Source: a virus
Taxonomy: Duplodnaviria; Heunggongvirae; Uroviricota; Caudoviricetes
Reading direction: 5' to 3' (one strand)
Virus record (IMG/VR): IMGVR_UViG_640753024_000004
Location: 1 to 16,173 of that record
DNA length: 16,173 nucleotides
Part shown: positions 1 to 16,173 of the stretch, in pieces
Layout of the letters: each line of letters begins with the position of its first letter
Numbering within the stretch: the stretch's first letter is position 1
Translations under genes and position numbers: made by a program
Notes under the pieces: model-generated
Seen by the model: only the letters and a program-made list of their open reading frames with translations
The model's database searches: none
Told to the model about the DNA's origin: nothing

Positions 1-996
1 TTATGGACGCATTATGGACATTCCTGACACCGGGTTAAGAGTCACAGCATCTTGTAAGAAATCCGGTGCAAAGTGTGCGTAGGTCATAGTTTGCTGAATG
101 TTAGAATGACCCAGGATGCGCTGCAATGTGATTATGTTACCTCCATTCATTATAAAATGTGTGGCAAATGTATGCCTCAAAACATGTACTGCTTGTCCGT
201 CAGGTAAATCGGGTTTTACTTCCCTGAGAGCGTTACGCACTTTGTAGTAACTGGCATTAAAAAGCCTGCCTGAATTTTTGGTCTTGATCCGTTTAATCAG
301 GTCCTGCGAAACGGGAATTGTCCTGCGTTTTCCGTTTTTAGTTTTCATAAACGTAACCATCTGGTTAATGATGTGTTCAGCTTTTAAATTAGACACTTCA
401 CTCCAGCGTCCACCAGTAGAAAGGCAGACCAGAGTTGCATTTAATTCATCACCATCAAGCATGGATAACAGCCGCGTAATCTCTTCACTGGACAAAAAAG
501 CCATTTCCGTAACAGCTTCACGTAACCGTTTAATCTCACGGAACGGGTTGTGGGAGTGGTATTCACCGGCGTCAATTAACTTGGTGAACATCCCGCTCAT
601 TATTGCCAGATGTCGATTTACGCTGGCTGGTTTTAGACCATCGTTCATCATTACAACGCGATAATCAGTTATCGTTTTCTTTGTTAGCTGGTCAGCTCTG
701 GACACTCCCATTTCTGCAAATTTGGCGATTATTGTCGTTAAACGCCCCCGTTCAATATCTCCACGCTCATGTGATTTTCCGTGATATATCCACCATCTAC
801 CTAACAACTCTGTAAGAGTTCGGCGGTCGGCTGGTTTCTCCAACCACTCTTTGTTGTGGTAGTTAACCAATACATGACGTTCGAATGCCTGAGCTTCACC
901 TTTAGTTTTAAATTTCCGCCTGATACGTTTTCCATCTGCACCCTGCGGTCTGACGTCCACTTCATAACGACCATCATCGAGCTTTTTAATAGACAT
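1..996 (-). CDS. int: Prophage tyrosine integrase (P2 Int-like), 331 aa
   Basis: Full ORF on the minus strand ending at the window edge. Position next to a leftward repressor gene matches the P2 int-C arrangement. Family assignment is from my reading of the translated sequence, not a search. Confidence 0.85.
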   Translation of the reverse strand: MSIKKLDDGRYEVDVRPQGADGKRIRRKFKTKGEAQAFERHVLVNYHNKEWLEKPADRRTLTELLGRWWIYHGKSHERGDIERGRLTTIIAKFAEMGVSRADQLTKKTITDYRVVMMNDGLKPASVNRHLAIMSGMFTKLIDAGEYHSHNPFREIKRLREAVTEMAFLSSEEITRLLSMLDGDELNATLVCLSTGGRWSEVSNLKAEHIINQMVTFMKTKNGKRRTIPVSQDLIKRIKTKNSGRLFNASYYKVRNALREVKPDLPDGQAVHVLRHTFATHFIMNGGNIITLQRILGHSNIQQTMTYAHFAPDFLQDAVTLNPVSGMSIMRP

Positions 997-1089
997 AAAG
1001 CCCTCCGATGACGCTGTTTACTTCTACTACTTGAAAATTAATGCAATTTTCTTTCGTACATTTACTACACACATATGCTGAATAAATCG

Positions 1090-1389
1090 TCAGCCAGTCT
1101 TCTGGTCTGAGTGGTGCAAGGTTGTTGAGTCTTGCCCAATGTGTGCGAGAGCCGGGGCTATTTGTCCAGCTGCTGGATCTGTTTCATCAAACATGAACCA
1201 GTCACGATACTTGCGAAAGCGTGGATGCTTAAACAGCTTCATACCTGCTTCCATAGGCATTTTTGATTTTCCTGATTCATATCCATGATATGTGTAGTAA
1301 TTAATTCCAATTAATTCAGCAAGTTCCTTAGTTTTAAGACGTTCGGATTCACGGATGAGCTTTAGTTTCTCACTTTGTTCACTTGACAT
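1090..1389 (-). CDS. C: Immunity repressor, P2 C-like, 99 aa from the ATG at 1389
   Basis: The ORF track starts at a TTG at 1407; the first ATG (1389) gives MSSEQSEKLK..., 99 aa, the length of P2 C. The C-terminal stretch GQIAPALAH..SGQKTG resembles what I recall of P2 C, while the N-terminal half looks different. A GGAG lies about 12 nt upstream of the ATG. Confidence 0.7.
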   Translation of the reverse strand: MSSEQSEKLKLIRESERLKTKELAELIGINYYTYHGYESGKSKMPMEAGMKLFKHPRFRKYRDWFMFDETDPAAGQIAPALAHIGQDSTTLHHSDQKTG

Positions 1390-1497
1390 AATTTTGCTAA
1401 TCTCCAATTATATTGCTACTTGGCAATTTGTGATTCACTCAAAAAGGCTCTAGATGGCTCCAGTTGGTGAATCGCAAATCTTATGGAGGATAGCAAA
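1390..1497. promoter_or_regulatory. Immunity switch region between the divergent C and cox-like genes, with a 13-bp inverted repeat (ATTTGTGATTCAC at 1426-1438, GTGAATCGCAAAT at 1467-1479)
   Basis: The inverted repeat (12 of 13 positions complementary, 28-bp spacer) is seen directly. Its role as operator and the presence of Pe/Pc-type promoters are inferred from P2/186 biology. Confidence 0.45.
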
Positions 1498-1854
1498 GTG
1501 ACGACAAATGTAGAAATTTCTTGTCCAACTAGCGATGAGGCAAGTTTCGAAAATGAAGCCAAACGTAAAAGCATTCAGATTTCAGAGCGCCCATCTGATT
1601 TGCTGTCGAAAGAAGGTTTTGCTCTTTACATCGGTAAGACACCACGCGCGGTGGCTGAAATGGCTAAAGCAGGAAAGCTGCCAGCCTTCTACATGACAGA
1701 CCCATTAAAACCAAGAGGGAAAGCTGAATTATGGATTAATCGCCGTGAGTGGGACAAGTACGCAGCCCAACTGGTTGATGAAGCTCCGACAGAATGGCAT
1801 GACTGGAAAAATCGCATTAGTTACAGCAAATCAAGACATGGCCGTGCGGCTTAA
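1498..1854 (+). CDS. cox: Cox-like excisionase / HTH regulator; start uncertain (GTG 1498 after GGAGGA, or ATG 1483)
   Basis: First rightward gene, opposite the repressor. The segment ...ALYIGKTPRAVAEMAKAGKLPAFYMTDP... follows the pattern I recall for P2 Cox. The product is longer than the 91-aa P2 Cox. Confidence 0.55.
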   Translation: MTTNVEISCPTSDEASFENEAKRKSIQISERPSDLLSKEGFALYIGKTPRAVAEMAKAGKLPAFYMTDPLKPRGKAELWINRREWDKYAAQLVDEAPTEWHDWKNRISYSKSRHGRAA

Positions 1855-1864
1855 GGTGGAAAGG

Positions 1865-2035
1865 ATGAATGAGCCTCGTTGTATTGCTCAGTTATTGCGT
1901 AACGAAAGCCCCAGGGCGATTGACTTCACCATCACCCACGGTAAGGGGCGTAAGGGAATCATTATCCGCACCAAAAAACAGAGTCCGTTAAAAAAGGCTC
2001 TGACCTTTCTGAAAAGCCGGAGGGTCTGGAAATGA
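1865..2035 (+). CDS. Small hypothetical protein at the P2 orf78 position; start uncertain (ATG 1865 after AAGGTGGAAAGG, or ATG 1838, or 1745)
   Basis: ORF in the rightward early operon. Its stop overlaps the next start as ATGA at 2032-2035. Confidence 0.4.
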   Translation: MNEPRCIAQLLRNESPRAIDFTITHGKGRKGIIIRTKKQSPLKKALTFLKSRRVWK

Positions 2036-2532
2036 CAGTGATGACGCTCAATCTCGTCGAAAAACAGCCAGCAGCTATGCGCCGGATAATTGGTAAGCAT
2101 CTTGCCGTCCCTCGCTGGCAGGATACATGTGATTATTATAATCAGATGATGGAGCGCGAACGGCTAACAGTTTGCTTTCATGCGCAGTTAAAACAACGTC
2201 ACGCAACGATGCGTTTTGAAGAAATGAACGACGTCGAACGTGAACGGCTGGTTTGTGCAATTGATGAACTGCGTGGGGCATTCTCAAAACGCCGTCAGGT
2301 TGGCGCAAGTGAGTATGCATATATTAGTTTTTTAACCGTCAGTCAGCGCCGTACTTTATTTATGCACGCACGACTGACAGAAAAAGAATTTAACCAGCCA
2401 TACTGGCGAATTAATGAAGAATCATGTTACTGGCGTGATGCTTTATTCCGTGCATTACGTGAATTATTCAGCCTGTTTGAGTATGCACCGACAATTCTGA
2501 CGTCGGTAAAACCAGAGCAATATCTGCATTAA
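2032..2532 (+). CDS. B: Replication protein B-like, 166 aa
   Basis: Called by synteny (after cox/orf78, before the small ORFs and gene A) and by its 166-aa length, which matches what I recall for P2 B. Sequence identity was not verified. Confidence 0.6.
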   Translation: MTVMTLNLVEKQPAAMRRIIGKHLAVPRWQDTCDYYNQMMERERLTVCFHAQLKQRHATMRFEEMNDVERERLVCAIDELRGAFSKRRQVGASEYAYISFLTVSQRRTLFMHARLTEKEFNQPYWRINEESCYWRDALFRALRELFSLFEYAPTILTSVKPEQYLH

Positions 2533-2595
2533 ATAATTAACCAGAGTTTTTAACGCACTTAATTGTGCGGGGTTTCTTTTTGCCTGGAGAAAGTC

Positions 2596-2820
2596 ATGCA
2601 TACAGTTTCTGAAAATCAGTGCGGTAAATACGCATTACTGCTGCAACAGGCCAGAACCGAAGCACAGGCCGACGCTGCGACGCGCTTTTCTTCTCATCTT
2701 GACGCCATGATTCGCCACATCACAAAGGCGGAGTTATCCCGCGTGGAGATAGTCGAGCTGCTCAGTCAGGAGTCGGAAAAATTTCACAATATCGGATTGT
2801 CTCGCGGGGAGGTGCTTTGA
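2596..2820 (+). CDS. Hypothetical early protein (P2 orf80 position), 74 aa from ATG 2596
   Basis: GGAGAAA lies upstream of ATG 2596; the track start at 2563 is a TTG. A short stem (CGCAC/GTGCG) with a T-rich tail sits just upstream at about 2553-2581. Confidence 0.5.
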
Positions 2821-3122
2821 TGTCCTGTTCTCGTTCAGTTGTATTACTGAATAACGCCTTAAAAATCACCGTTATGAAAAATGGCGATTTATCTCTTATT
2901 CAACTTGGTCTTGATAAAGAAAAACGCGAAATAACTGAGTCTGTTATCGCGATTTATCAGAACGAATTAAATCTCCTGTCTGATGTGGTCAATTTACTTG
3001 TTAAACGCGCTGTATTTCACAAGCAAATCTCCTCCGTGGATGAACTGACGAAATTAACGACAGAAATTGCCAGCTATTGCGCTGATGAATTTAAAAAACT
3101 TAACGACAAAAGGAGCTGGTAA
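2820..3122 (+). CDS. Hypothetical early protein (P2 orf81 position)
   Basis: ATG overlaps the previous stop (TGATG), suggesting translational coupling. An alternative start is ATG 2874 (MKNGDL...). Confidence 0.5.
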   Translation: MSCSRSVVLLNNALKITVMKNGDLSLIQLGLDKEKREITESVIAIYQNELNLLSDVVNLLVKRAVFHKQISSVDELTKLTTEIASYCADEFKKLNDKRSW

Positions 3123-3346
3123 TGCCGGACAACGTAGATTTTATTCAGGAACAACAGGCTGAATTACTGGAGCGTCAGATTAACGCGGCAAGGGTAAAAC
3201 ATTGCGGTGCTTCTGCGCTGGTTTGCGAAGAGTGTGACGCGCCAATACCTGCTGCCCGTCGTGCGGCTTATCCGTCAGCCACGCGTTGTGTTTCCTGCCA
3301 GTCAGTCTTTGAAGCAAAAAACAAACATTACCGGAGAACGGCATGA
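3122..3346 (+). CDS. TraR/DksA-family C4 zinc-finger protein (P2 orf82 position), 74 aa
   Basis: Two Cys pairs (C..C.EEC and C.SC). AGGAG is upstream and the start overlaps the previous stop as TAATG. Confidence 0.7.
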   Translation: MPDNVDFIQEQQAELLERQINAARVKHCGASALVCEECDAPIPAARRAAYPSATRCVSCQSVFEAKNKHYRRTA

Positions 3347-3618
3347 GTATTCGTATTGAAATTGGCGAACGTTATGTCGTTACCAGTGACAGCTTTCAGT
3401 TTATTCTCCACGAGAAAAAGAGAGCGGAAAGCGGTAAAAACGCCGGTCAGGAATGGCTGGCGGTGGTTGGTTATTATCCGAAATTAAGCCAGCTCGTTTC
3501 CGGCCTGATGCATCACGATATTCTGACCGGAAGCGCAAAGTCTTTTGCTGATTTAAACGCGCAGGTTGAGCAACTCAGCAGGCGTTGTTCAGAGGCTTTT
3601 GGCTCATATGGCCGTTAA
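3343..3618 (+). CDS. Hypothetical early protein (P2 orf83 position), 91 aa
   Basis: Start overlaps the previous stop (ATGA). Its stop overlaps the start of gene A. Confidence 0.55.
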   Translation: MSIRIEIGERYVVTSDSFQFILHEKKRAESGKNAGQEWLAVVGYYPKLSQLVSGLMHHDILTGSAKSFADLNAQVEQLSRRCSEAFGSYGR

Positions 3619-5884
3619 AGCCTCCGGGCGTTTTGTCCCTCCGTCAGCATTTGCCGCAGGCACCGGTAAGGCGTTTACCGGTGCTTATGCATGGAACGCG
3701 CCACGCGAGGCTGTCGGGCGCGAAAGACCCCTTACACGTGACGAGATGCGTCAGGTGCAAGGGGTTTTATCCACGATTAACCGTCTGCCTTACTTTTTGC
3801 GCTCGCTGTTTACTTCACGCTATGACTACATCCGGCGCAATAAAAGCCCGGTGCACGGGTTTTATTTTCTCACATCCACTTTTCAGCGTCGTTTATGGCC
3901 GCGCATTGAGCGTGTGAATCAGCGCCATGAAATGAACACCGACGCGTCGTTGCTGTTTCTGGCAGAGCGTGACCACTATGCGCGCCTGCCGGGAATGAAT
4001 GACAAGGAGCTGAAAAAGTTTGCCGCCCGTATCTCATCGCAGCTTTTCATGATGTATGAGGAACTCAGCGATGCCTGGGTGGATGCGCATGGCGAAAAAG
4101 AATCGCTGTTTACGGATGAGGCGCAGGCTCACCTCTATGGTCATGTTGCTGGCGCTGCACGTGCTTTCAATATTTCCCCGCTCTACTGGAAAAAATACCG
4201 TAAAGGACAGATGACCACGAGGCAGGCATATTCTGCCATTGCCCGTCTGTTTAACGATGAGTGGTGGACTCATCAGCTCAAAGGCCAGCGTATGCGCTGG
4301 CATGAGGCGTTACTGATTGCTGTCGGGGAGGTGAATAAAGACCGTTCTCCTTATGCCAGTAAACATGCCATTCGTGATGTACGTGCACGCCGCCAGGCAA
4401 ATCTGGAATTTCTTAAATCGTGTGACCTTGAAAACAGGGAAACCGGCGAGCGCATCGACCTTATCAGTAAGGTGATGGGCAGTATTTCTAATCCTGAAAT
4501 TCGCCGGATGGAGCTGATGAACACCATTGCCGGCATTGAGCGTTACGCCGCCGCAGAGGGTGATGTGGGGATGTTTATCACGCTGACCGCGCCGTCAAAG
4601 TATCACCCGACACGTCAGGTCGGAAAAGGCGAAAGTAAAACCGTCCAGCTAAATCACGGCTGGAACGATGAGGCATTTAATCCAAAGGATGCGCAGCGTT
4701 ATCTCTGCCATATCTGGAGCCTGATGCGCACGGCATTCAAGGATAATGATTTACAGGTCTACGGTTTGCGTGTCGTCGAGCCACACCACGACGGAACGCC
4801 GCACTGGCATATGATGCTTTTTTGTAATCCACGCCAGCGTAACCAGATTATTGAAATCATGCGTCGCTACGCGCTCAAAGAGGATGGAGACGAAAGAGGA
4901 GCCGCGCGAAACCGTTTTCAGGCAAAACATCTTAACCGGGGCGGTGCTGCGGGGTATATCGCGAAATACATCTCAAAAAACATCGATGGCTATGCACTGG
5001 ATGGTCAGCTCGATAACGATACCGGCAGGCCACTGAAAGATACTGCTGCGGCTGTTACCGCATGGGCGTCAACGTGGCGCATTCCGCAATTTAAAACGGT
5101 TGGCCTGCCGACAATGGGGGCTTACCGTGAACTACGCAAATTGCCTCGCGGCGTCAGCATTGCTGATGAATTTGACGAACGCGTCGAGGCTGCACGCGCC
5201 GCCGCAGACAGTGGTGATTTTGCGTTGTATATCAGCGCGCAGGGCGGGGCAAATGTCCCGCGCGATTGTCAGACTGTCAGGGTCGCCCGTAGCCCGTCGG
5301 ATGACGTTAACGAGTACGAGGAAGAAGTCGAGAGAGTGGTCGGCATTTACGCGCCGCATCTCGGCGCGCGTCATATTCATATCACCAGAACGACGGACTG
5401 GCGCATTGTGCCGAAAGTTCCGGTCGTTGAGCCTTTGACTTTAAAAAGCGGCATCGCCGCGCCTCGGAGTCCTGTCAATAACTGTGGAAAGCTCACCGGT
5501 GGTGATACTTCGTTACCGGCTCCCACACCTTCTGAACACGCCGCAGCAGTGCTTAATCTGGTTGATGACGGTGTTATCGAATGGAACGACACGGAGGTCG
5601 TGAGGGCGCTCAGGGGGGCATTAAAACACGACCTGAGAACACCAAATCGTCAGCAAAGAAACGGAAGCCCGTTAAAACCACATGAAATTGCACCATCGGC
5701 CAGACTGACCCGGTCGGAAAGAATGCAAATTACCCGTATCCGCGTTGACCTTGCTCAGAACGGTATCAGGCCGCAGCGATGGGAGCTTGAGGCGCTGGCG
5801 CGTGGCGCGACCGTAAATTATTACGGGAAATCTTTCAATTATCAGGTCGCTGATGAGTGGCCTGGATTTTTGTTACCCATTTGA
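3608..5884 (+). CDS. A: Rolling-circle replication initiator endonuclease gpA (HUH family), about 758 aa
   Basis: Contains the HUH-type active-site tyrosine motif GYIAKYISKNIDG. The whole protein matches my recollection of P2 gpA. ATG 3608 (MAVKASGRF...) is preferred over the in-frame TTG at 3566. Confidence 0.9.
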   Translation: MAVKASGRFVPPSAFAAGTGKAFTGAYAWNAPREAVGRERPLTRDEMRQVQGVLSTINRLPYFLRSLFTSRYDYIRRNKSPVHGFYFLTSTFQRRLWPRIERVNQRHEMNTDASLLFLAERDHYARLPGMNDKELKKFAARISSQLFMMYEELSDAWVDAHGEKESLFTDEAQAHLYGHVAGAARAFNISPLYWKKYRKGQMTTRQAYSAIARLFNDEWWTHQLKGQRMRWHEALLIAVGEVNKDRSPYASKHAIRDVRARRQANLEFLKSCDLENRETGERIDLISKVMGSISNPEIRRMELMNTIAGIERYAAAEGDVGMFITLTAPSKYHPTRQVGKGESKTVQLNHGWNDEAFNPKDAQRYLCHIWSLMRTAFKDNDLQVYGLRVVEPHHDGTPHWHMMLFCNPRQRNQIIEIMRRYALKEDGDERGAARNRFQAKHLNRGGAAGYIAKYISKNIDGYALDGQLDNDTGRPLKDTAAAVTAWASTWRIPQFKTVGLPTMGAYRELRKLPRGVSIADEFDERVEAARAAADSGDFALYISAQGGANVPRDCQTVRVARSPSDDVNEYEEEVERVVGIYAPHLGARHIHITRTTDWRIVPKVPVVEPLTLKSGIAAPRSPVNNCGKLTGGDTSLPAPTPSEHAAAVLNLVDDGVIEWNDTEVVRALRGALKHDLRTPNRQQRNGSPLKPHEIAPSARLTRSERMQITRIRVDLAQNGIRPQRWELEALARGATVNYYGKSFNYQVADEWPGFLLPI

Positions 5885-6150
5885 GTAAAAATGCAGCGTG
5901 ATTTTATATGCCTTTGAATGGATTATGCGAAGCGCCTCTAAGGCAGATGAGGAGCAATAGCATGCTGAAGTAGAAGGCTAAATTGTATTGAATCGCTAGC
6001 ATGTAATTTAAGGCAGCTATTTGATTCGAGTCATAAAAGAGCATCTATTTCGGCTAATAAAACCATTGCGAGTGACCTTTTGTCGAAGCATAATTCATCT
6101 CGAGCGAAGTCTTGCTAGTCTTTCATCGGAATGATGACAGGCGCAAAAAA

Positions 6151-6174
6151 ACCACCCTGGCAGGTGGTTTTTTT
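6151..6174. terminator. Bidirectional rho-independent terminator (ACCACC-CTGGC-AGGTGGT hairpin with an A-run before and a T-run after)
   Basis: Seen directly: aaaaaaACCACCctggcaGGTGGTttttttt. It lies downstream of gene A on the plus strand and downstream of the 37-aa ORF on the minus strand. Confidence 0.5.
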
Positions 6175-6186
6175 GTTTGAAGCATA

Positions 6187-6300
6187 TTAAAGAATAATAC
6201 TTACATGGATATTACTGACGTTTACTGACAAACCACTTGGACTACCATATGGATAGCCAAAGAGGGCCAGAACGAGAATGCAGTAATAGCACTTCTTCAT
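6187..6300 (-). CDS. Candidate 37-aa peptide MKKCYYCILVLALFGYPYGSPSGLSVNVSNIHVSIIL
   Basis: ATG preceded by AGGAGGAGAT on the minus strand. The stop sits 13 nt from the terminator hairpin. The N-terminus is hydrophobic. The ORF is not in the supplied track because it is too short. Confidence 0.35.
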   Translation of the reverse strand: MKKCYYCILVLALFGYPYGSPSGLSVNVSNIHVSIIL

Positions 6301-6872
6301 ATCTCCTCCTGTAAGCAGAGGGCAATTTCCGCCGATATATGCGCTTCTGAGGCGGAGTTACTATTTAGCGAAGTCTTGCCCTGAAATAATGCTCTGTTTA
6401 AACGCAAAGTGATCTGGCATATCACCGAACAGAGAGCCTGAACAACACAACATATAGTATGTCGTTGTTTCTGGTTGCATTTTATGTTGTGTAATACTGG
6501 TTTTGCATCAAGGATGTTTGAGCTTTTTTTGATATAGCTCAAAGTAAAAAGCAGGGACTACGGATGATAAGGTATTGAAAGCAATGTAAATTTTTTAAAG
6601 TTATTGGTGGCTAAAAAATGCACGGTTTCAATATGGCGGACTTAAATAAGCAATTAAAAAAGTCATAAATATCACTAAAATCATGGTGTTACGTTTTTTT
6701 TGTGGGAGCTGCGGTGACGCTTAAGTTGATTTGTCATTAAATAAGCCGTGCATGCAACAAGTGAATGTTTTTGCATGCGTCGGGGATGCCCGTTCCAGCT
6801 GCTCGCGGTCAGAGCTGGTGCGGATCCATAGTATCTATGCAACTGCATTAAAACCGCCACATGAAGCGGGCG

Positions 6873-6891
6873 GGCGAGGCGGGGAAAGCAC
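6873..6891. other. cos site: exact match to the P2/P4 19-nt cohesive-end sequence GGCGAGGCGGGGAAAGCAC
   Basis: The 19-mer is seen directly. Identity to the P2 cos sequence is from memory. The position (after the gene A region, before the portal gene) matches the P2 prophage map. Confidence 0.7.
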
Positions 6892-6934
6892 CGCGCGTAA
6901 GATAAACAGAAGAGCGAAGGATTATGGTTGAGTA

Positions 6935-6997
6935 TTTGTGTTTTTGTACATATGATAAAAAGGTGTTTACGCTTAAAAACACATCAAAGGAGATGAT
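6935..6997 (+). promoter_or_regulatory. AT-rich putative promoter and RBS (AGGAG about 6 nt before the ATG) of the ATPase cassette
   Basis: Contains TTGTGT/TTGTAC and TATGAT-like hexamers and an SD sequence. Exact -35/-10 assignment is unresolved. Confidence 0.3.
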
Positions 6998-8299
6998 ATG
7001 GAAAATATAAAGATTGATAAGTTTCTCACTATTCAAAAAGTTGATATTCCTCTTAAGAAAGTGAATATATTTATTGGGCCTCAGGCACAGGGGAAAAGTG
7101 TCATTGCAAAGCTAATAAAATATTTTAAAGATTATCCTATGGATATACTACGAGCTTCAACAGAGGGTAAAACTAAAAGAGATATATTGAAGGAGCAAAA
7201 GAATAAGTTTAGTAAAATTTTCCCTCAGCAGTATTGGGCTGATGATGAGTTTTTTATTGAGTATAGTAATAAGCACTATTGGGTGCGGATTACTAATCGA
7301 AAAAATAGCAAAGGGTCATTGAAAATAGACCTTTCTGAGAATTTAACGAAGACGATTGCTAAACTTCGTTTGATTGTACGAAAGGATTTAGATGAAAATA
7401 TTGAGAATTCACTTGCAGAAAGCGTTACGAGAAGACGTAAACGCGGAATTGAACATGAATTGCGAGTATGTCTTTCTCTAGGATTGTTTTCAGAACCAGA
7501 AACAAAGCTTGAAAGTGTTTTTTATATCCCCGCAGGGCGCTCTTTTTTTGCTAATTTGCAAAAAAATGTGTTTTCATTTTTATCCAGTAGTATAGAAATT
7601 GACTACTTTTTGACAGAGTTTGGTTCTCTGTATGAACAAACAAAAAAATTATTTAACCAAGATTACATGATTAGGATGCTTAGGGGGGCTGTGCCTCAAC
7701 ATGTTAATAAACTTGTGGAGGAGTTGATTTGCGGAAAATATATAACAGAAAAGGGTGAGGATTTTATTCGTCATGCTGCTAAGAAGACGAATCTTAACAA
7801 CTCGAGCTCAGGGCAGCAAGAAGCGTTACCAATGGCTTTAATGTTATCCTCATGGCCGTATTTACAGTCTGTGACTAGTAAGAGTTTTATTATTGAGGAG
7901 CCGGAGGCTCATCTGTTTCCTTCTGCCCAAGCAAAAGTTGTATCTTTAATAGCCTCAGCGTATAACCAAGCAGAAAGCTATTGTAGCTATACAATAACAA
8001 CACATAGTCCATATATTCTAAGTGCCTTCAATAATTTGATTCAAGCAGGTAATGCATTAAAGTGTATTAAGGGCAAGAATAATACCGATATCGAACGCTT
8101 ATATAAGCTTGTTCCAGAGTCTCAAATTATTGATTTTGATGATGTGACAGCTTATATGGTTAATGCTGGGAAAGTGACGGAAATACTGGATTCCGAACTA
8201 AATATATTAGATGCGAATGAAATAGATAGGATTTCCTCTATTTTTTCAGAGACTTTTGATGCATTGATTGATATCGAATATTCGGCTACTGTGAATTAG
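6998..8299 (+). CDS. ABC-type ATPase of the OLD/AAA_21-like class, 433 aa; cargo gene
   Basis: Walker A GPQAQGKS, ABC-signature-like SSGQQ, Walker B/D-loop FIIEEPEAHLFP, H-loop TTHSP. AT-rich codon usage unlike the prophage backbone. No C-terminal TOPRIM or nuclease domain is apparent. Confidence 0.85.
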   Translation: MENIKIDKFLTIQKVDIPLKKVNIFIGPQAQGKSVIAKLIKYFKDYPMDILRASTEGKTKRDILKEQKNKFSKIFPQQYWADDEFFIEYSNKHYWVRITNRKNSKGSLKIDLSENLTKTIAKLRLIVRKDLDENIENSLAESVTRRRKRGIEHELRVCLSLGLFSEPETKLESVFYIPAGRSFFANLQKNVFSFLSSSIEIDYFLTEFGSLYEQTKKLFNQDYMIRMLRGAVPQHVNKLVEELICGKYITEKGEDFIRHAAKKTNLNNSSSGQQEALPMALMLSSWPYLQSVTSKSFIIEEPEAHLFPSAQAKVVSLIASAYNQAESYCSYTITTHSPYILSAFNNLIQAGNALKCIKGKNNTDIERLYKLVPESQIIDFDDVTAYMVNAGKVTEILDSELNILDANEIDRISSIFSETFDALIDIEYSATVN

Positions 8300-8307
8300 G
8301 TGATTGA

Positions 8308-8745
8308 ATGTGTAAAAATTGCAAAGGAAAAACAAAAAATAAAATCATTGTGCTATCTGATAAAGGAACGTCAACGCAATTGTCAGTCACAAATGATAAT
8401 GAGTTGGAAGTTGAGCATAAGTTAATAGATGGTTGCGCTATTGTTGTTGGAGAGCGGTGTGATCATTATTTGAAGATTTATAACAATCAGGATGTTTCAC
8501 ATCTTTTTGTTGAACTTAAAGGAAGTGATGTTGAAAAAGCTGTTAAACAGATAGTGACAACTTTAAAGTCAGGTGTGATTAATGTAGGTGCTAAAGAAAA
8601 AAAACATGGTGCTATTGTTAGCACTAGGAATCCGCTAAACTCAACAGAAACCAATAGGTTAAAGAAGAAAATTCTTTTGAGTGACGGAGTGAATTTGCAT
8701 TTCTATAAAATGAAGGCGCAGCAAAAAATAACTTCTTTTACATGA
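8308..8745 (+). CDS. Small Cys-rich partner protein, 145 aa, of unknown function; possible nuclease-like effector
   Basis: Starts 9 nt after the ATPase stop with AGGTGA upstream, so it is an operon partner. Has CxxC (C2,C5) plus C43/C51, and a D52...E69-L-K71 arrangement that could be a PD-(D/E)xK-like core; the latter is speculative. Confidence 0.7.
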   Translation: MCKNCKGKTKNKIIVLSDKGTSTQLSVTNDNELEVEHKLIDGCAIVVGERCDHYLKIYNNQDVSHLFVELKGSDVEKAVKQIVTTLKSGVINVGAKEKKHGAIVSTRNPLNSTETNRLKKKILLSDGVNLHFYKMKAQQKITSFT

Positions 8746-8758
8746 AGTGTTCTCTTGT

Positions 8759-8782
8759 ACAGGCATGCATTTGCATGCCTGT
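8759..8782. terminator. Near-perfect palindrome ACAGGCATGCA-TT-TGCATGCCTGT after the cassette; possible terminator or protein-binding site
   Basis: 11-bp stem seen directly. The T-tail is weak (cttttac). Confidence 0.35.
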
Positions 8783-8848
8783 CGTGTAATCTTTTACACT
8801 ATATTTGTGTTGGTTCTAATCTTGTTATGTGTTTGTTTCGGTGATGGG

Positions 8849-9391
8849 TCATAATGAATAAGTTCGAAAGCGAAATACATCTTCGCCAACCCAACAGTTA
8901 ATTTCTTTACATCGCTCTTGGAGGAACGTTAGCTCGTTGCGTACAAAGACTTGTGCTGCTTTTGTTACATCTCCAAATCCTCCTGTGTTGTTGGGCATCA
9001 TTCCTATCATTTGGGGAGGCACGCGATGAGCACTCATTAGATCTTCAGCACTTGCTTTTTTGATATTAAAAAAATCGTCCTTCGTTGCCACTTCACTGAG
9101 CGGGATAATTTTAATGCCGTCGGCTTTCCCCTGTGGGGCATAGAGAAACAGATTTTTAAAGTTATTACGGCCTTTCGACTTAACCATGTTTTCGCGAAGC
9201 ATTTCGATATCGTTGCGATCCTGCACGGCATCGGTGACGTACATGATGTATCCGGCATGAGCGCCGTTTTCGTAATACTTGCGGCGGAACAGCGTGGCCG
9301 ACTCATTCAGCCAGGCAGAGTTAAGGGCGCTGAGATATTCCGGCAGGCCGTACAGCTCCTGATTAATATCCGGCTCCAGCAGGTGAAACAC
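8849..9391 (-). pseudogene. Q: Portal protein gene Q, 3' portion only (about 180 codons, C-terminal half)
   Basis: The translation matches what I recall of the C-terminal half of the P2 portal protein (P2 Q is about 344 aa). The reading frame has no plausible N-terminus and runs into the E/E' remnant. Confidence 0.75.
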
Positions 9392-9394
9392 GGA

Positions 9395-9647
9395 GCCGGG
9401 TGACCGAGCAGGAAGTCGCCGCGCTGGAACTGCCTGACCTTGTGGCGCTGGCCGGTAAGGTGGTCGGTTTTTTGTCGCCGAACTCGGTGCAGTGACGTTT
9501 CCGAAAAATCTCTCGGTCGATGACCTGATGGCGGATGTGGCAGTGATATTTCACTGGCCGCCATCAGAACTGTATCCCATGAGCCTGACCGAACTCATCA
9601 CATGGCGCGAAAAGGCGCTCCGGCGAAGCGGAAACACGAATGAGTAA
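9395..9647 (+). pseudogene. E: 3' remnant of tail chaperone genes E and E' (E frame to the stop at 9493-9495; E' extension frame to the stop at 9645-9647, overlapping the T start)
   Basis: Two overlapping frames: ...TEQEVAALELPDLVALAGKVVGFLSPNSVQ* and ...FFVAELGAVTFPKNLSVDDLMADVAVIFHWPPSELYPMSLTELITWREKALRRSGNTNE*, joined at a T6G slippery site. No start codon or 5' part is present. Confidence 0.6.
9468..9474 (+). other. Programmed -1 frameshift slippery sequence TTTTTTG of the E/E' pair
   Basis: T6G is seen where the E frame (GGT TTT TTG) and E' frame (TTT TTT GTC) overlap. A frameshift of this kind is established for the P2 E/E' tail chaperone pair. Confidence 0.5.
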
Positions 9648-10697
9648 CAATGTAAAATTACAGGTATTGCTCAGGGCTGTTGACCAGGCATCACGCCCGT
9701 TTAAATCCATCCGTACAGCGAGCAAATCGCTGTCGGGGGATATCCGGGAAACACAAAAATCACTGCGCGAGCTGAACGGTCAGACATCCCGTATTGAGGG
9801 ATTTCGCAAGACCAGTGCACAGCTCGCCGTGACTGGTCATGCACTTGAAAAGGCTCGGCAGGAAGCAGAAGCCCTTGCCACACAGTTTAAAAACACCGAA
9901 CGTCCGACCCGTGCTCAGGCGAAAGTGCTGGAATCAGCAAAGCGAGCGGCGGAGGACTTACAGGCGAAATATAACCGCCTGACGGATTCCGTTAAACGCC
10001 AGCAGCGGGAACTGGCCGCTGTGGGAATTAATACCCGCAATCTTGCACATGATGAGCAGGGACTGAAAAACCGTATCAGTGAAACCACCGCACAGCTTAA
10101 CCGGCAGCGCGACGCGCTGGCGCGTGTCAGTGCGCAACAGGCAAAACTTAACGCAGTCAAACAGCGTTATCAGGCCGGAAAGGAACTGGCCGGAAATATG
10201 GCCTCAGTAGGCGCTGCCGGTGTGGGGATTGCGGCGGCGGGAACGATGACCGGAGTTAAGTTGCTGATGCCCGGTTATGAGTTTGCGCAGAAAAACTCAG
10301 AATTGCAGGCCGTGCTCGGAGTGGCAAAAGACTCCGCCGAAATGACCGCACTACGCAAACAGGCGCGCCAGCTCGGCGACAATACCGCCGCCTCGGCGGA
10401 TGATGCGGCCGGTGCACAGATAATCATCGCGAAAGCGGGTGGAGATGCTGCGGCTATTCAGGCGGCAACGCCGGTCACGCTGAATATGGCACTGGCGAAT
10501 CAGCGGTCGATGGAAGAAAACGCGCAACTGTTGCTGGGGACTAAGGCATCCTTTCAACTGTCAAATGATGATGTCAGCCATGTGGGCGACGTGTTGTCGG
10601 CAACGATGAATAAGTCGGCGGCTGATTTTCAGGGGCTCAGTGATGCACTGACTTACCTCGGGCCGGTTGCGAGGACGGCGGGTGTAAGTCTTGAGCA
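9640..10697 (+). pseudogene. T: Tail tape-measure gene T, 5' part, interrupted by an IS21-family insertion
   Basis: Coiled-coil-like, Ala/Gln-rich N-terminal tape-measure sequence. The frame runs into the IS left end and stops at 10723-10725 inside the IS inverted repeat. Confidence 0.8.
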
Positions 10698-10750
10698 TGT
10701 CAGCGCCAATGATATAAGACAGTAATTCACCATTTGGATTGTCCGCTCCA
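10698..10750. repeat. IS21-family left terminal inverted repeat region
   Basis: Matches the right end in inverted orientation: terminal TGTCA(G/A)CGCCAA, then CCATTTGGATTGTCCGCT against CCATTTTTAATGTCCGCT. Confidence 0.6.
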
Positions 10751-10798
10751 CCCAACATGTTGTTTCCTTAAGGTTCCTACACCACAAAGGGAACACTC

Positions 10799-12765
<1,967 letters not shown>

Positions 12766-12767
12766 TG

Positions 12768-12822
12768 ACCAATAGCGGACATTAAAAATGGCGAAAAACG
12801 GCCAATAATCTTGGCGTTGACA
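12768..12822. repeat. IS21-family right terminal inverted repeat region (two AGCGGACA motifs, ends ...GTTGACA)
   Basis: Inverted match to the left end, seen directly. Confidence 0.6.
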
Positions 12823-14216
12823 AGCAGGCAGCGGCCATGACAGGTGTGCTGCATGACAATAACATCAGGGGGTCAATGGCGGGTACTGGTAGTAGTGCCG
12901 TTGTCACCCGATTACAGGCTCCGACAGGGAAAGCATGGGAAGCACTCAAAGAGCTTGGCGTTAAAACCTCGGACAAAAAGGGAAATATGCGTCCGTTGTT
13001 CACCATTCTGAAAGAGATTCAGGCCAGCTTTGATAAACACAAGCTGGGAACGTCTCAGAAGGGGGAATACCTTAAAACCATTTTTGGTGAGGAAGCCCTG
13101 AAATCAGCGAACGTTTTACTGGCAGCGGCTGCAAGCGGAAAACTGGATAAGCTGACCGCCACGCTGAAAGCCTCGGACGGTAAAACGGAAGAGCTGGTTA
13201 AAATCATGCAGGATAACCTCGGCGGTGACTTTAAGGAGTTTCAGTCTGCTTATGAGGCGGTGGGGACTGACCTGTTTGACCAACAGGAAGGCGCACTGCG
13301 TAATCTCACGCAGACGGCCACAAAGTATGTGTTAAAACTCGACGGCTGGATCCAGAAAAACAAATCACTGGCGTCAACCATCGGCCTTATTGTCGGTGGC
13401 GCACTGGCGCTTATTGGCATCATCGGTGCAATTGGTCTTGTAGCCTGGCCGGTTATCACCGGCATTAATGCCATCATCGCGGCAGCAGGCGCAATGGGGG
13501 CAATCTTCACGACGGTTGGCAGTGCTGTTATGACGGCCATCGGGGCGATTAGCTGGCCGATTGTGGCTGTGGTGGCCGCCATTGTCGCCGGGGCGTTGCT
13601 TATCCGTAAATACTGGGAGCCTGTCAGCGCATTCTTTGGTGGTGTGGTTGAAGGGCTGAAAGCAGCATTTGCGCCGGTGGGGGAGCTGTTCTCGCCACTG
13701 AAACCGGTGTTTGACTGGCTGGGCGAAAAGTTACAGGCCGCGTGGCAGTGGTTTAAAAACCTGATTGCCCCGGTCAAAGCCACCCAGGACACCCTGAACC
13801 GTTGCCGTGATACTGGCGTCATGTTCGGGCAGGCACTGGCTGACGCGCTGATGCTGCCGCTTAATGCGTTCAACAAACTGCGCAGCGGTATTGACTGGGT
13901 ACTGGAAAAACTCGGCGTCATCAACAAAGAGTCTGACGCACTTGACCAGACTGCCGCCAGAACTCATGCCGCCACGTATGGCACAGGTGGTTATATTCCG
14001 GCGACCAGCTCTTATGCAGGCTATCAGGCTTACCAGCCGGTCACGGCACCGGCTGGTCGCTCTTATGTGGACCAGAGTAAAAACGAATATCACATCAACC
14101 TGACGGGCGGTACTGCGCCGGGGACACAGCTTGACCGCCAGTTACAGGATGTGCTCGAAAAATACGAGCGGGATAAACGTGCGCGCGCCCGTGCCAGCAT
14201 GATGCATGACGGTTAA
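12823..14216 (+). pseudogene. T: Tail tape-measure gene T, 3' part
   Basis: Removing the IS and one AGCA copy rejoins the frame as ...GVSLEQAAAMTGVLHDNNIRGSMAGTG..., giving about 816 codons, close to the length I recall for P2 gpT. Contains a hydrophobic Gly/Ala-rich central segment typical of tape-measure proteins. Confidence 0.8.
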
Positions 14217-14230
14217 GGAGGTAACGAAAA

Positions 14231-14710
14231 ATGATGCTCGCGTTAGGTATGTTTGTTTTTATGCGCCAGACGCTGCCACACCAGACCATGCAGCGTGAAT
14301 CAGATTATCGCTGGCCGTCAAATTCCCGTATCGGCAAACGGGATGCCTTTCAGTTTCTCGGTGCGGGTGAGGAAAACATCACGCTTGCCGGTGTGCTTTA
14401 TCCTGAACTGACCGGCGGAAAGCTGACGATGACCACGCTCAGACTGATGGCAGAGGAAGGCCGGGCGTGGCCGTTGCTGGATGGCACCGGCATGATTTAC
14501 GGCATGTATGTCATCAGCAAGGTGAGTGAAACAGGGAGTATTTTCTTTGCAGACGGCACACCCCGGAAAATTGATTTTACGCTGTCGCTCACCCGCGTTG
14601 ATGAATCACTGGCCGCGCTTTATGGCGATATCGGTAAACAGGAGGAATCGCTCATCGGTAAGGCTGGCAGTATGGCGACTAAATTCACGGATATGACGGG
14701 GGCGGGATAA
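14231..14710 (+). CDS. U: Tail protein gpU-like, 159 aa
   Basis: Synteny T-U-D-ogr, AAGGAGG upstream, and a length matching what I recall for P2 gpU. Confidence 0.75.
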   Translation: MMLALGMFVFMRQTLPHQTMQRESDYRWPSNSRIGKRDAFQFLGAGEENITLAGVLYPELTGGKLTMTTLRLMAEEGRAWPLLDGTGMIYGMYVISKVSETGSIFFADGTPRKIDFTLSLTRVDESLAALYGDIGKQEESLIGKAGSMATKFTDMTGAG

Positions 14711-15873
14711 TGCTGGATGCACTGACATTTGATGCAGGCAGTACGCTGACGCCGGATTACATGCTGATGCTCGACAGCAGGGATATTACCGGCAATATCA
14801 GCGACCGTCTGATGAGTATGACCCTGACGGATAACCGGGGCTTTGAGGCTGACCAGCTTGATATTGAACTGAACGATGCCGACGGGCAGGTCGGGCTGCC
14901 GGTTCGTGGCGCTGTCCTGACGGTGTATATCGGCTGGAAAGGTTTTGCCCTGGTATGCAAAGGGAAATTTACCGTTGATGAGGTTGAACACCGGGGCGCA
15001 CCGGATGTGGTCACCATCCGCGCCCGGAGTGCAGATTTTCGCGGGACGCTCAATTCCCGCCGGGAAGGCTCCTGGCATGACACCACGCTCGGTGCGATTG
15101 TTGAGGCGATAGCCACCCGTAACAGGCTGGAAGCCAGTGTCGCTCCGTCACTGGCCGGAATTAAAATCCCGCACATCGACCAGTCGCAGGAGTCCGATGT
15201 GAAATTCCTGACCCGTCTTGCTGAACGCAACGGCGGCGAGGTGTCGGTAAAAATGGGAAAACTGCTGTTTCTCAAAGCGGGGCAGGGGGTGACGGCCAGC
15301 GGTAAAAAAATCCCGCAGATCACCATCACCCGCAGCGACGGTGACCGTCATCATTTTGCGATTGCTGACCGTGGAGCCTATACCGGCGTAACGGCAAAGT
15401 GGCTTCACACCAAAGACCCGAAGCCGCAAAAGCAGAAGGTAAAACTGAAACGCAAAAAGAAAGAGAAACACCTGCGCGCACTGGAGCACCCGAAAGCGAA
15501 ACCAGTCACGCAGAAGAAAGCGCCAAAAGTACCGGAAGCGCGCGAAGGTGAATGCATGGCCGGTGAGGCTGACAACGTTTTTGCCCTGACCACGGTATAT
15601 GCCACGAAAGCGCAGGCCATGCGCGCCGCTCAGGCGAAGTGGGATAAGCTGCAACGGGGCGTGGCGGAGTTCTCCATCAGCCTGGCTACCGGTCGGGCAG
15701 ATATTTACACGGAAACACCGGTCAAAGTGTCAGGCTTTAAGCGCGTCATAGACGAGCAGGACTGGACAATCACTAAGGTGACACATTTTCTGAATAATAG
15801 CGGCTTCACGACGTCCTTAGAGCTTGAGGTCAGGCTTTCTGATGTGGAGTACGAAACAGAAGATGATGAGTGA
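14710..15873 (+). CDS. D: Tail protein gpD-like, 387 aa
   Basis: Start overlaps the U stop (ATAATG). Synteny and length match P2 gpD as I recall it. Has a Lys-rich central linker. Confidence 0.8.
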   Translation: MLDALTFDAGSTLTPDYMLMLDSRDITGNISDRLMSMTLTDNRGFEADQLDIELNDADGQVGLPVRGAVLTVYIGWKGFALVCKGKFTVDEVEHRGAPDVVTIRARSADFRGTLNSRREGSWHDTTLGAIVEAIATRNRLEASVAPSLAGIKIPHIDQSQESDVKFLTRLAERNGGEVSVKMGKLLFLKAGQGVTASGKKIPQITITRSDGDRHHFAIADRGAYTGVTAKWLHTKDPKPQKQKVKLKRKKKEKHLRALEHPKAKPVTQKKAPKVPEAREGECMAGEADNVFALTTVYATKAQAMRAAQAKWDKLQRGVAEFSISLATGRADIYTETPVKVSGFKRVIDEQDWTITKVTHFLNNSGFTTSLELEVRLSDVEYETEDDE

Positions 15874-15954
15874 TGTTTTTATTTTATCTGTTTGTTTTAT
15901 AAGGATAAATTAACTAGAATGGCACCATCAACAAAACCGGAAGAGGTGCTCGCG

Positions 15955-16173
15955 ATGTTTCATTGTCCTTTATGCCAGCATGCCGCACATGCGCGTACAA
16001 GCCGCTATATCACTGACACGACAAAAGAGCGTTATCACCAGTGTCAGAACGTGAATTGCAGCGCCACGTTCATCACTTATGAGTCGGTACAGCGATACAT
16101 CGTGAAACCGGGAGAAGTCCACGCCGTAAGGCCGCACCCGTTGCCGTCAGGGCAGCAAATTATGTGGATGTAA
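15955..16173 (+). CDS. ogr: Late-gene transcriptional activator Ogr (Cys4 zinc finger), 72 aa from MFHCPLCQH...
   Basis: CPLC...CQNVNC zinc-finger motif; the sequence matches my recollection of P2 Ogr. The track start at 15892 is probably too far upstream. Confidence 0.9.
   Translation: MFHCPLCQHAAHARTSRYITDTTKERYHQCQNVNCSATFITYESVQRYIVKPGEVHAVRPHPLPSGQQIMWM

Follow-up and report, generated by a model that had tools for sequence, protein, structure and literature searches.

A probable type I toxin-antitoxin-like family in P2-like prophages and enterobacterial plasmids

The par system (Fst/RNA II) of the Enterococcus faecalis plasmid pAD1 is a toxin-antitoxin (TA) system of type I with convergent promoters and one bidirectional terminator with complementary loops (PMC7472228). 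Further complementarity between its RNAs results from opposite transcription across direct repeats, the antitoxin RNA is about 65-80 nt long, and the system is found on mobile elements (PMC7472228). In T1TAdb, a 3'-side organisation with an interaction outside the overlap is listed for Gram-positive families only (PMC8594479). In the TimP/TimR (ryfA) system, as would be the case at the locus described here, the mRNA measures about 300-330 nt, of which about 150-170 nt form a leader with several stem-loops, and the 5' end of the antitoxin RNA TimR pairs with the leader 64-80 nt before the AUG, resulting in repression at a distance (PMC7667032, PMC11228461). We analyzed a stretch of 16,173 nt (IMG/VR record IMGVR_UViG_640753024_000004, positions 1 to 16,173; the window), which is a degraded P2-like (Peduovirus) prophage of Escherichia coli. 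A 37-codon open reading frame (ORF) on its minus strand (6187-6300) is most probably the toxin-like half of an undescribed, widespread module, which would consist of a peptide gene and a convergent small RNA (sRNA). We consider it likely that two genes at this locus form a small-peptide module of the type I TA kind that is controlled by RNA.

Conservation of the 37-codon reading frame

The peptide gene and the conserved unit that contains it are as follows.
6187-6300, minus strand: 37-codon ORF (ATG at 6300-6298, TAA at 6189-6187), peptide MKKCYYCILVLALFGYPYGSPSGLSVNVSNIHVSIIL
6305-6310, minus strand: Shine-Dalgarno (SD) sequence AGGAGG, followed by AGAT, 4 nt before the ATG
5960-6560: conserved module of about 600 bp, common to P2-like prophages and to Klebsiella, Leclercia and Salmonella plasmids

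According to the original prediction, a 37-codon ORF with a strong SD sequence would be translated into a small membrane peptide or a toxic one, perhaps a type I toxin. Both the ORF and the SD sequence (AGGAGG at 6310-6305) are recovered when the minus strand is read. The stop codon had been placed 13 nt before a terminator, which is essentially right (12 nt if the A-run is included, 19 nt to the CCACC stem). By itself, the ORF is within chance expectation, as 23 ORFs of at least 20 residues overlap this AT-rich stretch of 1.2 kb. We judge it to be a real gene, as had been proposed, because frame, length, SD sequence and terminator are kept in relatives down to approximately 65-75% DNA identity. 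In an alignment of 18 representatives, GGAGG, GGAGA or GGTGG is found at the SD position in all relatives. Three other ORFs of the region were discarded: one of 81 residues that starts with TTG (6297-6542), one of 39 (6361-6480) and one of 46 residues (5904-6044) are all broken by 1-nt indels or stop codons in relatives.

A search for conserved homologous ORFs had been suggested as a check, and the frame appears to be under purifying selection both in P2-like phages and in unrelated plasmid contexts. Across 24 distinct DNA versions, the ORF has 37-39 codons. These versions encode about 20 different peptides of 37-39 residues that follow one pattern: M-(K/N/D)-(K/R)-x(2-4)-C, a hydrophobic run of about 8-10 residues, G-x-Q/P-S/G-x-W/L and a tail in which polar and hydrophobic residues alternate. 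Indels comprise whole codons only inside the ORF, and 1-nt indels occur in the leader. Mean pairwise differences at codon positions 1, 2 and 3 are 0.33, 0.21 and 0.46, respectively. The pooled ratio of nonsynonymous to synonymous differences (pN/pS) is 0.46 in the frame of the ORF; the antisense mirror frame has 0.58 and the remaining four frames have 0.87-1.28. Pairwise ratios of the corresponding substitution rates (dN/dS) are 0.12-0.48 for the ORF. The DNA of the ORF region is more diverged than that of the leader, yet the amino-acid pattern is retained, and the ORF is intact in all 64 true module matches from scans of viral and metagenome contigs. We conclude from these patterns that the ORF is, by all indications, a protein-coding gene under purifying selection.

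At its N-terminus, the peptide is basic; about 12 hydrophobic residues follow, and the tail is polar and rich in Ser, Asn and His. The peptide most likely inserts into the inner membrane via its signal-anchor-like N-terminus (MKK followed by the hydrophobic residues). The proposal of a small membrane or toxic peptide is supported.

The predicted convergent sRNA and its complementarity to the mRNA leader

The predicted RNA elements of the module are as follows.
6102-6178, plus strand: predicted antitoxin-like sRNA of about 77 nt, consisting of a 5' seed, a variable middle hairpin and the terminator
6066-6094, plus strand: predicted sRNA promoter TTGCGA-17-CATAAT from a promoter scan, with a start at about 6102
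6103-6116, plus strand: 5' seed of the sRNA, AGCGAAGUCUUGCU, the downstream copy of a direct repeat
6145-6174, both strands: bidirectional intrinsic terminator AAAAAAACCACC-TGCCAG-GGTGGTTTTTTT (A7-CCACC-6-nt loop-GGTGG-T7)
6367-6380, minus strand: predicted sRNA target GGCAAGACUUCGCU, located within the mRNA leader 67-80 nt before the AUG; this is the repeat's upstream copy
6319-6325, minus strand: internal partner UUGCCCU, which can pair with the 5' part of the target (AGGGCAA) and overlaps CCCUCUG
6392-6434, minus strand: conserved two-tier stem-loop in the mRNA leader
6479-6511, minus strand: predicted promoter of the toxin mRNA, with the invariant TTGATGCAAA at 6511-6502 and the -10 box TAAAAT at 6484-6479

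An antisense RNA had been proposed as something to look for. An sRNA gene is predicted in the neighbourhood, convergent with the peptide gene, and its complementarity to the mRNA leader covaries. It does not, however, overlap the ORF: the predicted transcripts have only the terminator in common, and pairing would involve the 5' untranslated region by way of a direct repeat. The sequence GCAAGACTTCGCT occurs twice on the minus strand, once in the leader (6379-6367) and once past the terminator (6115-6103), and these copies are direct DNA repeats 264 bp apart. Transcription would cross the two copies in opposite senses, which makes the sRNA complementary to the leader at its 5' end.

The predicted duplex comprises 14 contiguous standard pairs in each of the 17 haplotypes, with zero mismatches. 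At four of its positions, both sides have changed (C-G to U-A, A-U to G-C, C-G to U-A and G-C to A-U). One-sided changes occur in 11 cells and all of them result in G.U; C.A or A.C is never found. When the partner is slid by 1-3 columns, pairing drops from 94% to 27-44%. Because the one-sided changes are biased in one direction, pairing at the RNA level is favoured over a repeated protein-binding site or gene conversion. A duplex prediction for the whole RNAs gave a loop-ridden artefact that was equalled by 4.7% of the shuffles; it was replaced by the analysis of the contiguous duplex and its covariation. A predicted antisense sRNA gene would hence be adjacent and complementary to the peptide mRNA, as is typical of type I TA systems.

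The putative sRNA promoter is conserved across clades in its -35 box (TTGCGR, or TTGCNT at 18 nt) and in its -10 box, while spacers diverge. The predicted sRNA folds with -31.9 kcal/mol (z = -4.4), its 5' seed being free or weakly paired and the terminator forming its 3' hairpin. In the middle hairpin, pairing is kept while the sequence changes, and four pairs show compensatory changes among 15 relatives.

The terminator serves both predicted transcripts, and its loops, UGCCAG and CUGGCA, are complementary to each other. The CUGGCA loop has a YUNR-like turn (CUGG). Including its loop, the terminator is invariant in 7 relatives found by BLAST, at a mean column identity of 70%. A simple terminator scan missed the hairpin at 6145-6174, which is flanked by A and T runs and is plain in the sequence. 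In an Enterobacter metagenome-assembled genome (MAG; locus L022, reverse strand, 2000-3500), an insert of about 0.9 kb, with a membrane-like ORF of about 218 residues, interrupts the module. There, the terminator is duplicated, and each half of the module retains one full copy. This would be expected if each RNA needs the terminator.

On the mRNA side, TGCAAA is located 17 nt from the -10 box; TGCAAA and TARAAT are kept in all clades, while the spacer varies. With the predicted start near 6472, the leader would comprise about 172 nt and the whole mRNA about 328 nt (to approximately 6145). RNAalifold, applied to 14 leaders, found 20 pairs in three helices. Eight of these have compensatory changes, seven of them in the stem-loop at 6392-6434. 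The tract CCCUCUG, which is overlapped by the internal partner, is C-rich and anti-SD-like, being able to pair with the SD sequence. The pair AGGGCAA/UUGCCCU of the P2 clade is replaced in other clades by GGUGGC/GCCGCC, GGUGAC/GUCACC or GGUGGU/ACCACC, and the helix ends 17-20 nt before the ATG in every clade. In a swap control, target and partner from the same clade pair with -11.5 kcal/mol on average vs. -8.8 kcal/mol for those from different clades. An internal helix between the sRNA target and the partner at 6319-6325 is thus moderately supported.

These elements suggest how the peptide may be controlled. The minus strand would give rise to an mRNA of about 330 nt (from approximately 6472 to 6145) with a structured leader and the ORF. 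From a separate promoter, the plus strand would yield the convergent sRNA of about 77 nt, and the one terminator would end both RNAs. First contact may occur between the complementary terminator loops, as in par. The seed of the sRNA would then invade the leader and displace the internal helix with the partner UUGCCCU. The freed anti-SD tract could sequester the SD sequence, which would shut the ribosome-binding site. The predicted sRNA site, 67-80 nt before the AUG, is too remote for a direct block of the ribosome-binding site to be likely. Moderate support exists for the view that the sRNA competes with the internal partner and may so remodel the leader that the SD sequence becomes sequestered. 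Alternatively, the sRNA might block a standby site or an activating structure in the leader, and cleavage of the sRNA-mRNA duplex by RNase III may contribute. The outcome would be tight repression of a potentially harmful peptide as long as the element is present.

Distribution, alternative explanations and genomic context

The original prediction had placed the ORF in a prophage accessory region. This setting is too narrow: the module is not specific to prophages and is also found on plasmids. The ORF region occurs in 151 of 5426 complete E. coli genomes (3%), in identity classes of about 99, 97, 94 and 91%, and invariably follows P2 gpA closely there. In RefSeq, zero features are annotated by PGAP over the module among the E. 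coli matches listed. A phage collection has the module in three records, one of which labels the ORF as "hypothetical protein". The unit of about 600 bp was found, free of P2 genes, in 419 plasmid records (388 of which cover at least 80% of the 621-bp query); 398 of them are from Klebsiella, mostly conjugative IncFIB/IncFII plasmids. The copy on the Klebsiella-type plasmid pJ53-KPC_Vir has 75% DNA identity, is without P2 genes nearby and adjoins insertion sequence (IS) elements and a dinQ toxin gene. More remote copies are found on Leclercia and Salmonella IncF plasmids, in Kluyvera and Leclercia, and in the Enterobacter MAG. Another 64 true instances come from the scans of viral and metagenome contigs, in which a pattern with half of the terminator and the -10 box of the sRNA was used.

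Peptides starting with MKKC form a clade that is located about 280 nt past gpA in 44 of 45 loci. The 45th locus has only 1.45 kb, which is too short for gpA. In no other clade is gpA nearby. This restriction suggests a single capture event, in which one lineage of the module may have been acquired once by P2-like phages.

Type I toxin genes were noticed within 1-2.5 kb of plasmid copies, namely dinQ on pJ53-KPC_Vir (L004, 2761-2898) and dqlB on a Salmonella IncF plasmid (L008, 786-881). The metagenome contig Ga0268256_1001162 (L104) carries two differing module copies (MNRW... and MNRV...) 2.9 kb apart. A multi-copy arrangement is common in type I systems. A terminator-based scan of genome contigs returned 37 matches. 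Most of these are RNAI hairpins of ColE1-like small plasmids, and only three of the loci contain the module. The loci L014, L031, L033, L041 and about 30 others from genome contigs carry such RNAI hairpins (RF00106, 79-97 bits). The contigs concerned mostly have 0.4-4 kb and belong to assemblies labelled as Kocuria, Streptomyces, Micromonospora, Chloroflexota and others, which has the appearance of contamination.

Several points weigh against a membrane-active toxin under sRNA control. With about 12 residues, the hydrophobic stretch is short for a helix that spans the membrane, and the single-sequence AlphaFold model has low confidence (predicted local distance difference test score 70) and was left unused. 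The -35 match of the mRNA promoter (TGCAAA) is weak, so that the start is uncertain. Conservation of the terminator and of the sRNA -10 box is partly circular in the loci derived from the scans and is unbiased for the BLAST-derived set only. The covarying haplotypes belong to few clades, which reduces the independent compensatory events to approximately four to eight. As only one repeat is present (par has two) and is remote from the ribosome-binding site, how repression would work is a guess. Experimental support for either transcript, for translation or for toxicity was looked for and none was found. The module is absent from the 83% of plasmid pKPN3 that was examined (Klebsiella pneumoniae MGH 78578, for which differential RNA sequencing (dRNA-seq) data and data from RNA interaction by ligation and sequencing (RIL-seq) are available). 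Among the sRNA candidates on pKPN3, KpnR_127 and KpnR_128 correspond to a hok locus and KpnR_124 is unrelated.

Four other explanations were weighed. Peptide and sRNA may both be real while the peptide is non-toxic, being a small membrane modulator that acts on a transporter, in envelope stress or in superinfection exclusion and is tuned by the sRNA. Purifying selection and conserved sRNA pairing would suit any regulated small protein, TimP as the closest functional analogue is tolerated at native levels upon deletion of timR (PMC7667032), and disrupted ORFs are found in none of the 64 modules, though disruption might be expected for a harmful peptide. This alternative is nevertheless rather unlikely, given that the module is confined to mobile elements as a self-contained unit of 600 bp, beside other type I toxins, and that a dedicated linked antisense RNA with a strong promoter is a hallmark of toxin control. 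Two convergent non-coding RNAs, with the ORF as a by-product of RNA constraints, would account for the conserved structure in leader and sRNA, and ryfA itself was considered non-coding for about two decades (PMC7667032). A purely RNA-based module is very unlikely, however, as frame-specific pN/pS, whole-codon indels, a kept SD sequence and ATG and a constant length are unexpected in non-coding DNA, and as the amino-acid pattern is kept in an ORF that is more diverged than the leader.

The copies of GCAAGACTTCGCT might instead be bound by one DNA-binding protein or have been left over from recombination, without being the basis of RNA-RNA pairing. This would agree with their being direct repeats, and gene conversion can also change two repeats in concert. 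We give this reading very little credence: all 11 differences within haplotypes are transitions that leave G.U and never C.A or A.C, the downstream copy coincides exactly with the +1 to +15 predicted for a conserved promoter of the other strand, and a third, intramolecular partner covaries at the same positions. A chance ORF beside the terminator of the P2 early operon is extremely improbable. Short ORFs are indeed numerous in this AT-rich spacer, and the bidirectional terminator, 260 nt past gpA, probably also stops gpA transcripts. Yet the unit of ORF, terminator and repeat occurs without gpA in hundreds of plasmids, and the ORF shows signs of purifying selection; barring assembly artefacts, the plasmid copies already refute an origin by chance.

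We thus return to a type I TA kind of module as the preferred reading. Candidate roles are plasmid or prophage addiction, abortive infection in the P2 hotspot (see below) and, for a peptide devoid of toxicity, a membrane function. It is tempting to combine the individual proposals into one scenario, which we put forward tentatively: contact would be made via the loops, the seed would free the anti-SD tract, the module would have been captured once into the P2 hotspot, where it may serve addiction or abortive infection, and other lineages would contribute to stabilising large Klebsiella IncF plasmids for resistance and virulence. The carriers are clinically important, with approximately 400 Klebsiella IncFIB/IncFII plasmids and, via P2-like prophages, 3% of the complete E. 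coli genomes. An unrecognised addiction or abortive-infection module could help to explain plasmid persistence, and it could be responsible for some of what the P2 defence hotspot contains; this hotspot has hitherto been surveyed for protein systems only. The three-way covariation of seed, leader target and internal partner offers a testable model of how an sRNA may remodel a leader far from the ribosome-binding site.

The genes that surround the locus in the window are as follows.
1-996, minus strand: integrase
Between integrase and gpA: repressor C, cox and early genes
3566-5884: replication endonuclease gpA
Between gpA and the ATPase gene: stretch of 1.1 kb without an annotated feature, which holds the 37-codon ORF
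6998-8745: AAA_15/AAA_21 ATPase (433 residues) and a partner of 145 residues
8849-9391, minus strand: portal fragment of 180 residues
10799-11971 and 11968-12765: istA and istB of an IS21 element, which interrupts the tape-measure gene
After the split tape-measure gene: gpU and gpD

The interval from gpA to the portal gene (gpA-gpQ) is a known anti-phage defence hotspot of P2-like phages (PMC9122126). For the ATPase and its partner, the best match is the candidate defence system PDC-M29 (E = 1.9e-31 for component A, E = 1.6e-4 for component B). The ATPase is also matched by AriA-like ATPase models, and the pair is typical cargo of the P2 hotspot. A block at 6721-6897 is kept in about 100 records of P2-like phages. 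Since its matches are at the extreme ends of linear records, it represents the P2 cos region, cut near position 6880. Between cos and the portal gene, the ATPase pair is found. Of the prophage, only a remnant is left: in the region that was examined (8849-15873), terminase, capsid, lysis and most tail genes are absent. In at least 15 "complete" E. coli chromosomes (e.g., NZ_CP172203, NZ_AP045067 and NZ_CM135829), the module is found at 2525-2773 (2524-2772 in one of them). These assemblies have therefore apparently been rotated to the first base of P2 gpA, presumably by a start-fixing tool which mistook gpA for a replication initiator.

Two blocks outside both predicted transcripts are conserved in all clades. 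One is located upstream of the sRNA -35 box (approximately 5990-6060, TTTATTAGCC..TATGAC..ATCAA), the other upstream of the mRNA promoter (approximately 6515-6555, CTTTTTACTTTG..TCAA.AAA). In alignments of the relatives, no conserved ORF covers these blocks. The blocks may serve as sites for regulators or as alternative promoters, a possible one being TTGAGC-17-AAACAT.

Comparison with known type I systems

Searches with the peptides against Pfam (at E up to 10), NCBIfam, PHROG, PADLOC and PDB sequences gave zero matches. The Hok, Ldr, Ibs, TisB, ShoB, DinQ/Dql and Zor profiles in Pfam, NCBIfam, PHROG and PADLOC do not match the peptide. Among 5.8 billion protein clusters, four "hypothetical" Klebsiella clusters match a query that was extended upstream to 48 residues. 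Together with the blank PGAP annotation among the RefSeq matches listed, these clusters illustrate an annotation gap. No Rfam family reaches its gathering score; permissive E-values result only in weak, terminator-driven matches to RNAI and Phe_leader. A literature search with peptide strings found no paper in the collection that was covered.

RNAI of ColE1-type plasmids is similar in one respect: the last hairpin of some of its variants has the same sequence as the terminator hairpin of 22 nt, AAACCACCTGCCAGGGTGGTTT. The match is, however, driven by the terminator alone, the window scoring 26.9 bits vs. a gathering score of 47 (RF00106), and no ColE1-type replication-origin features were seen.

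TimP/TimR is closest in function. In both cases, the peptide has about 38-41 residues, a basic N-terminus, a signal-like hydrophobic stretch that contains Cys, and a polar tail (E. coli TimP, MKIRCFCIVLIV...; peptide described here, MNRLCLCILVLT...). By inspection of the sequences, two traits are TimP-like: the N-terminus resembles a signal sequence, and the predicted sRNA site precedes the AUG by about 65-80 nt. Homology to TimP was considered on the basis of the N-terminus (MK/NR-C-x-C-I followed by hydrophobic residues) and was rejected as unsupported. The NCBIfam model NF040796 (toxic_TimP), which detects E. coli TimP with 86.8 bits as positive control, matches none of four family members at E up to 10, and hhalign gave a probability of 6.9% over 10 columns. 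The Rfam family for ryfA (RF00126) has no match at its gathering score, nor at E up to 5 in the region 5800-7100. The gene for TimR is located upstream and is divergent (PMC7667032; K-12 annotation), while the predicted sRNA gene described here is downstream and convergent, with a common terminator. Moreover, timPR is chromosomal, whereas the module is found on prophages and plasmids.

In TisB/IstR-1, ZorO/OrzO, ShoB/OhsC and DinQ/AgrB, the complementarity to the toxin leader is likewise short (about 14-20 nt), the sRNA has its own promoter, and it acts upstream of the ribosome-binding site. In these systems, however, the sRNA gene is 5' of the toxin gene and does not overlap it (PMC8594479). 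Profile searches revealed no similarity between the ORF product and TisB, ZorO, ShoB or DinQ.

The likeness to par concerns the layout: convergent promoter-like sites, the terminator at 6145-6174, complementarity derived from a repeat, an sRNA of about 77 nt and residence on mobile elements. The par system, however, has two repeats (DRa and DRb), and these cover the translation initiation region, whereas the module has one, 67-80 nt upstream of the AUG. Fst has a hydrophobic PXXXG motif and a charged C-terminal tail, while the peptide lacks PXXXG and has an uncharged tail; it is unmatched by the Pfam Fst/Ldr family and other toxin families at E up to 10. The hosts of par are Gram-positive, those of the module are Enterobacteriaceae.

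Features that are generic to type I systems are present, namely a small peptide gene (<60 residues) with a hydrophobic N-terminal half and signs of purifying selection. A new type I TA-like family is probable and, if confirmed, would imply both a new toxin family and a new regulatory layout for Gram-negative type I systems. From what the sequences indicate, the locus would be a variant of the type I TA kind which is a member of no named family.

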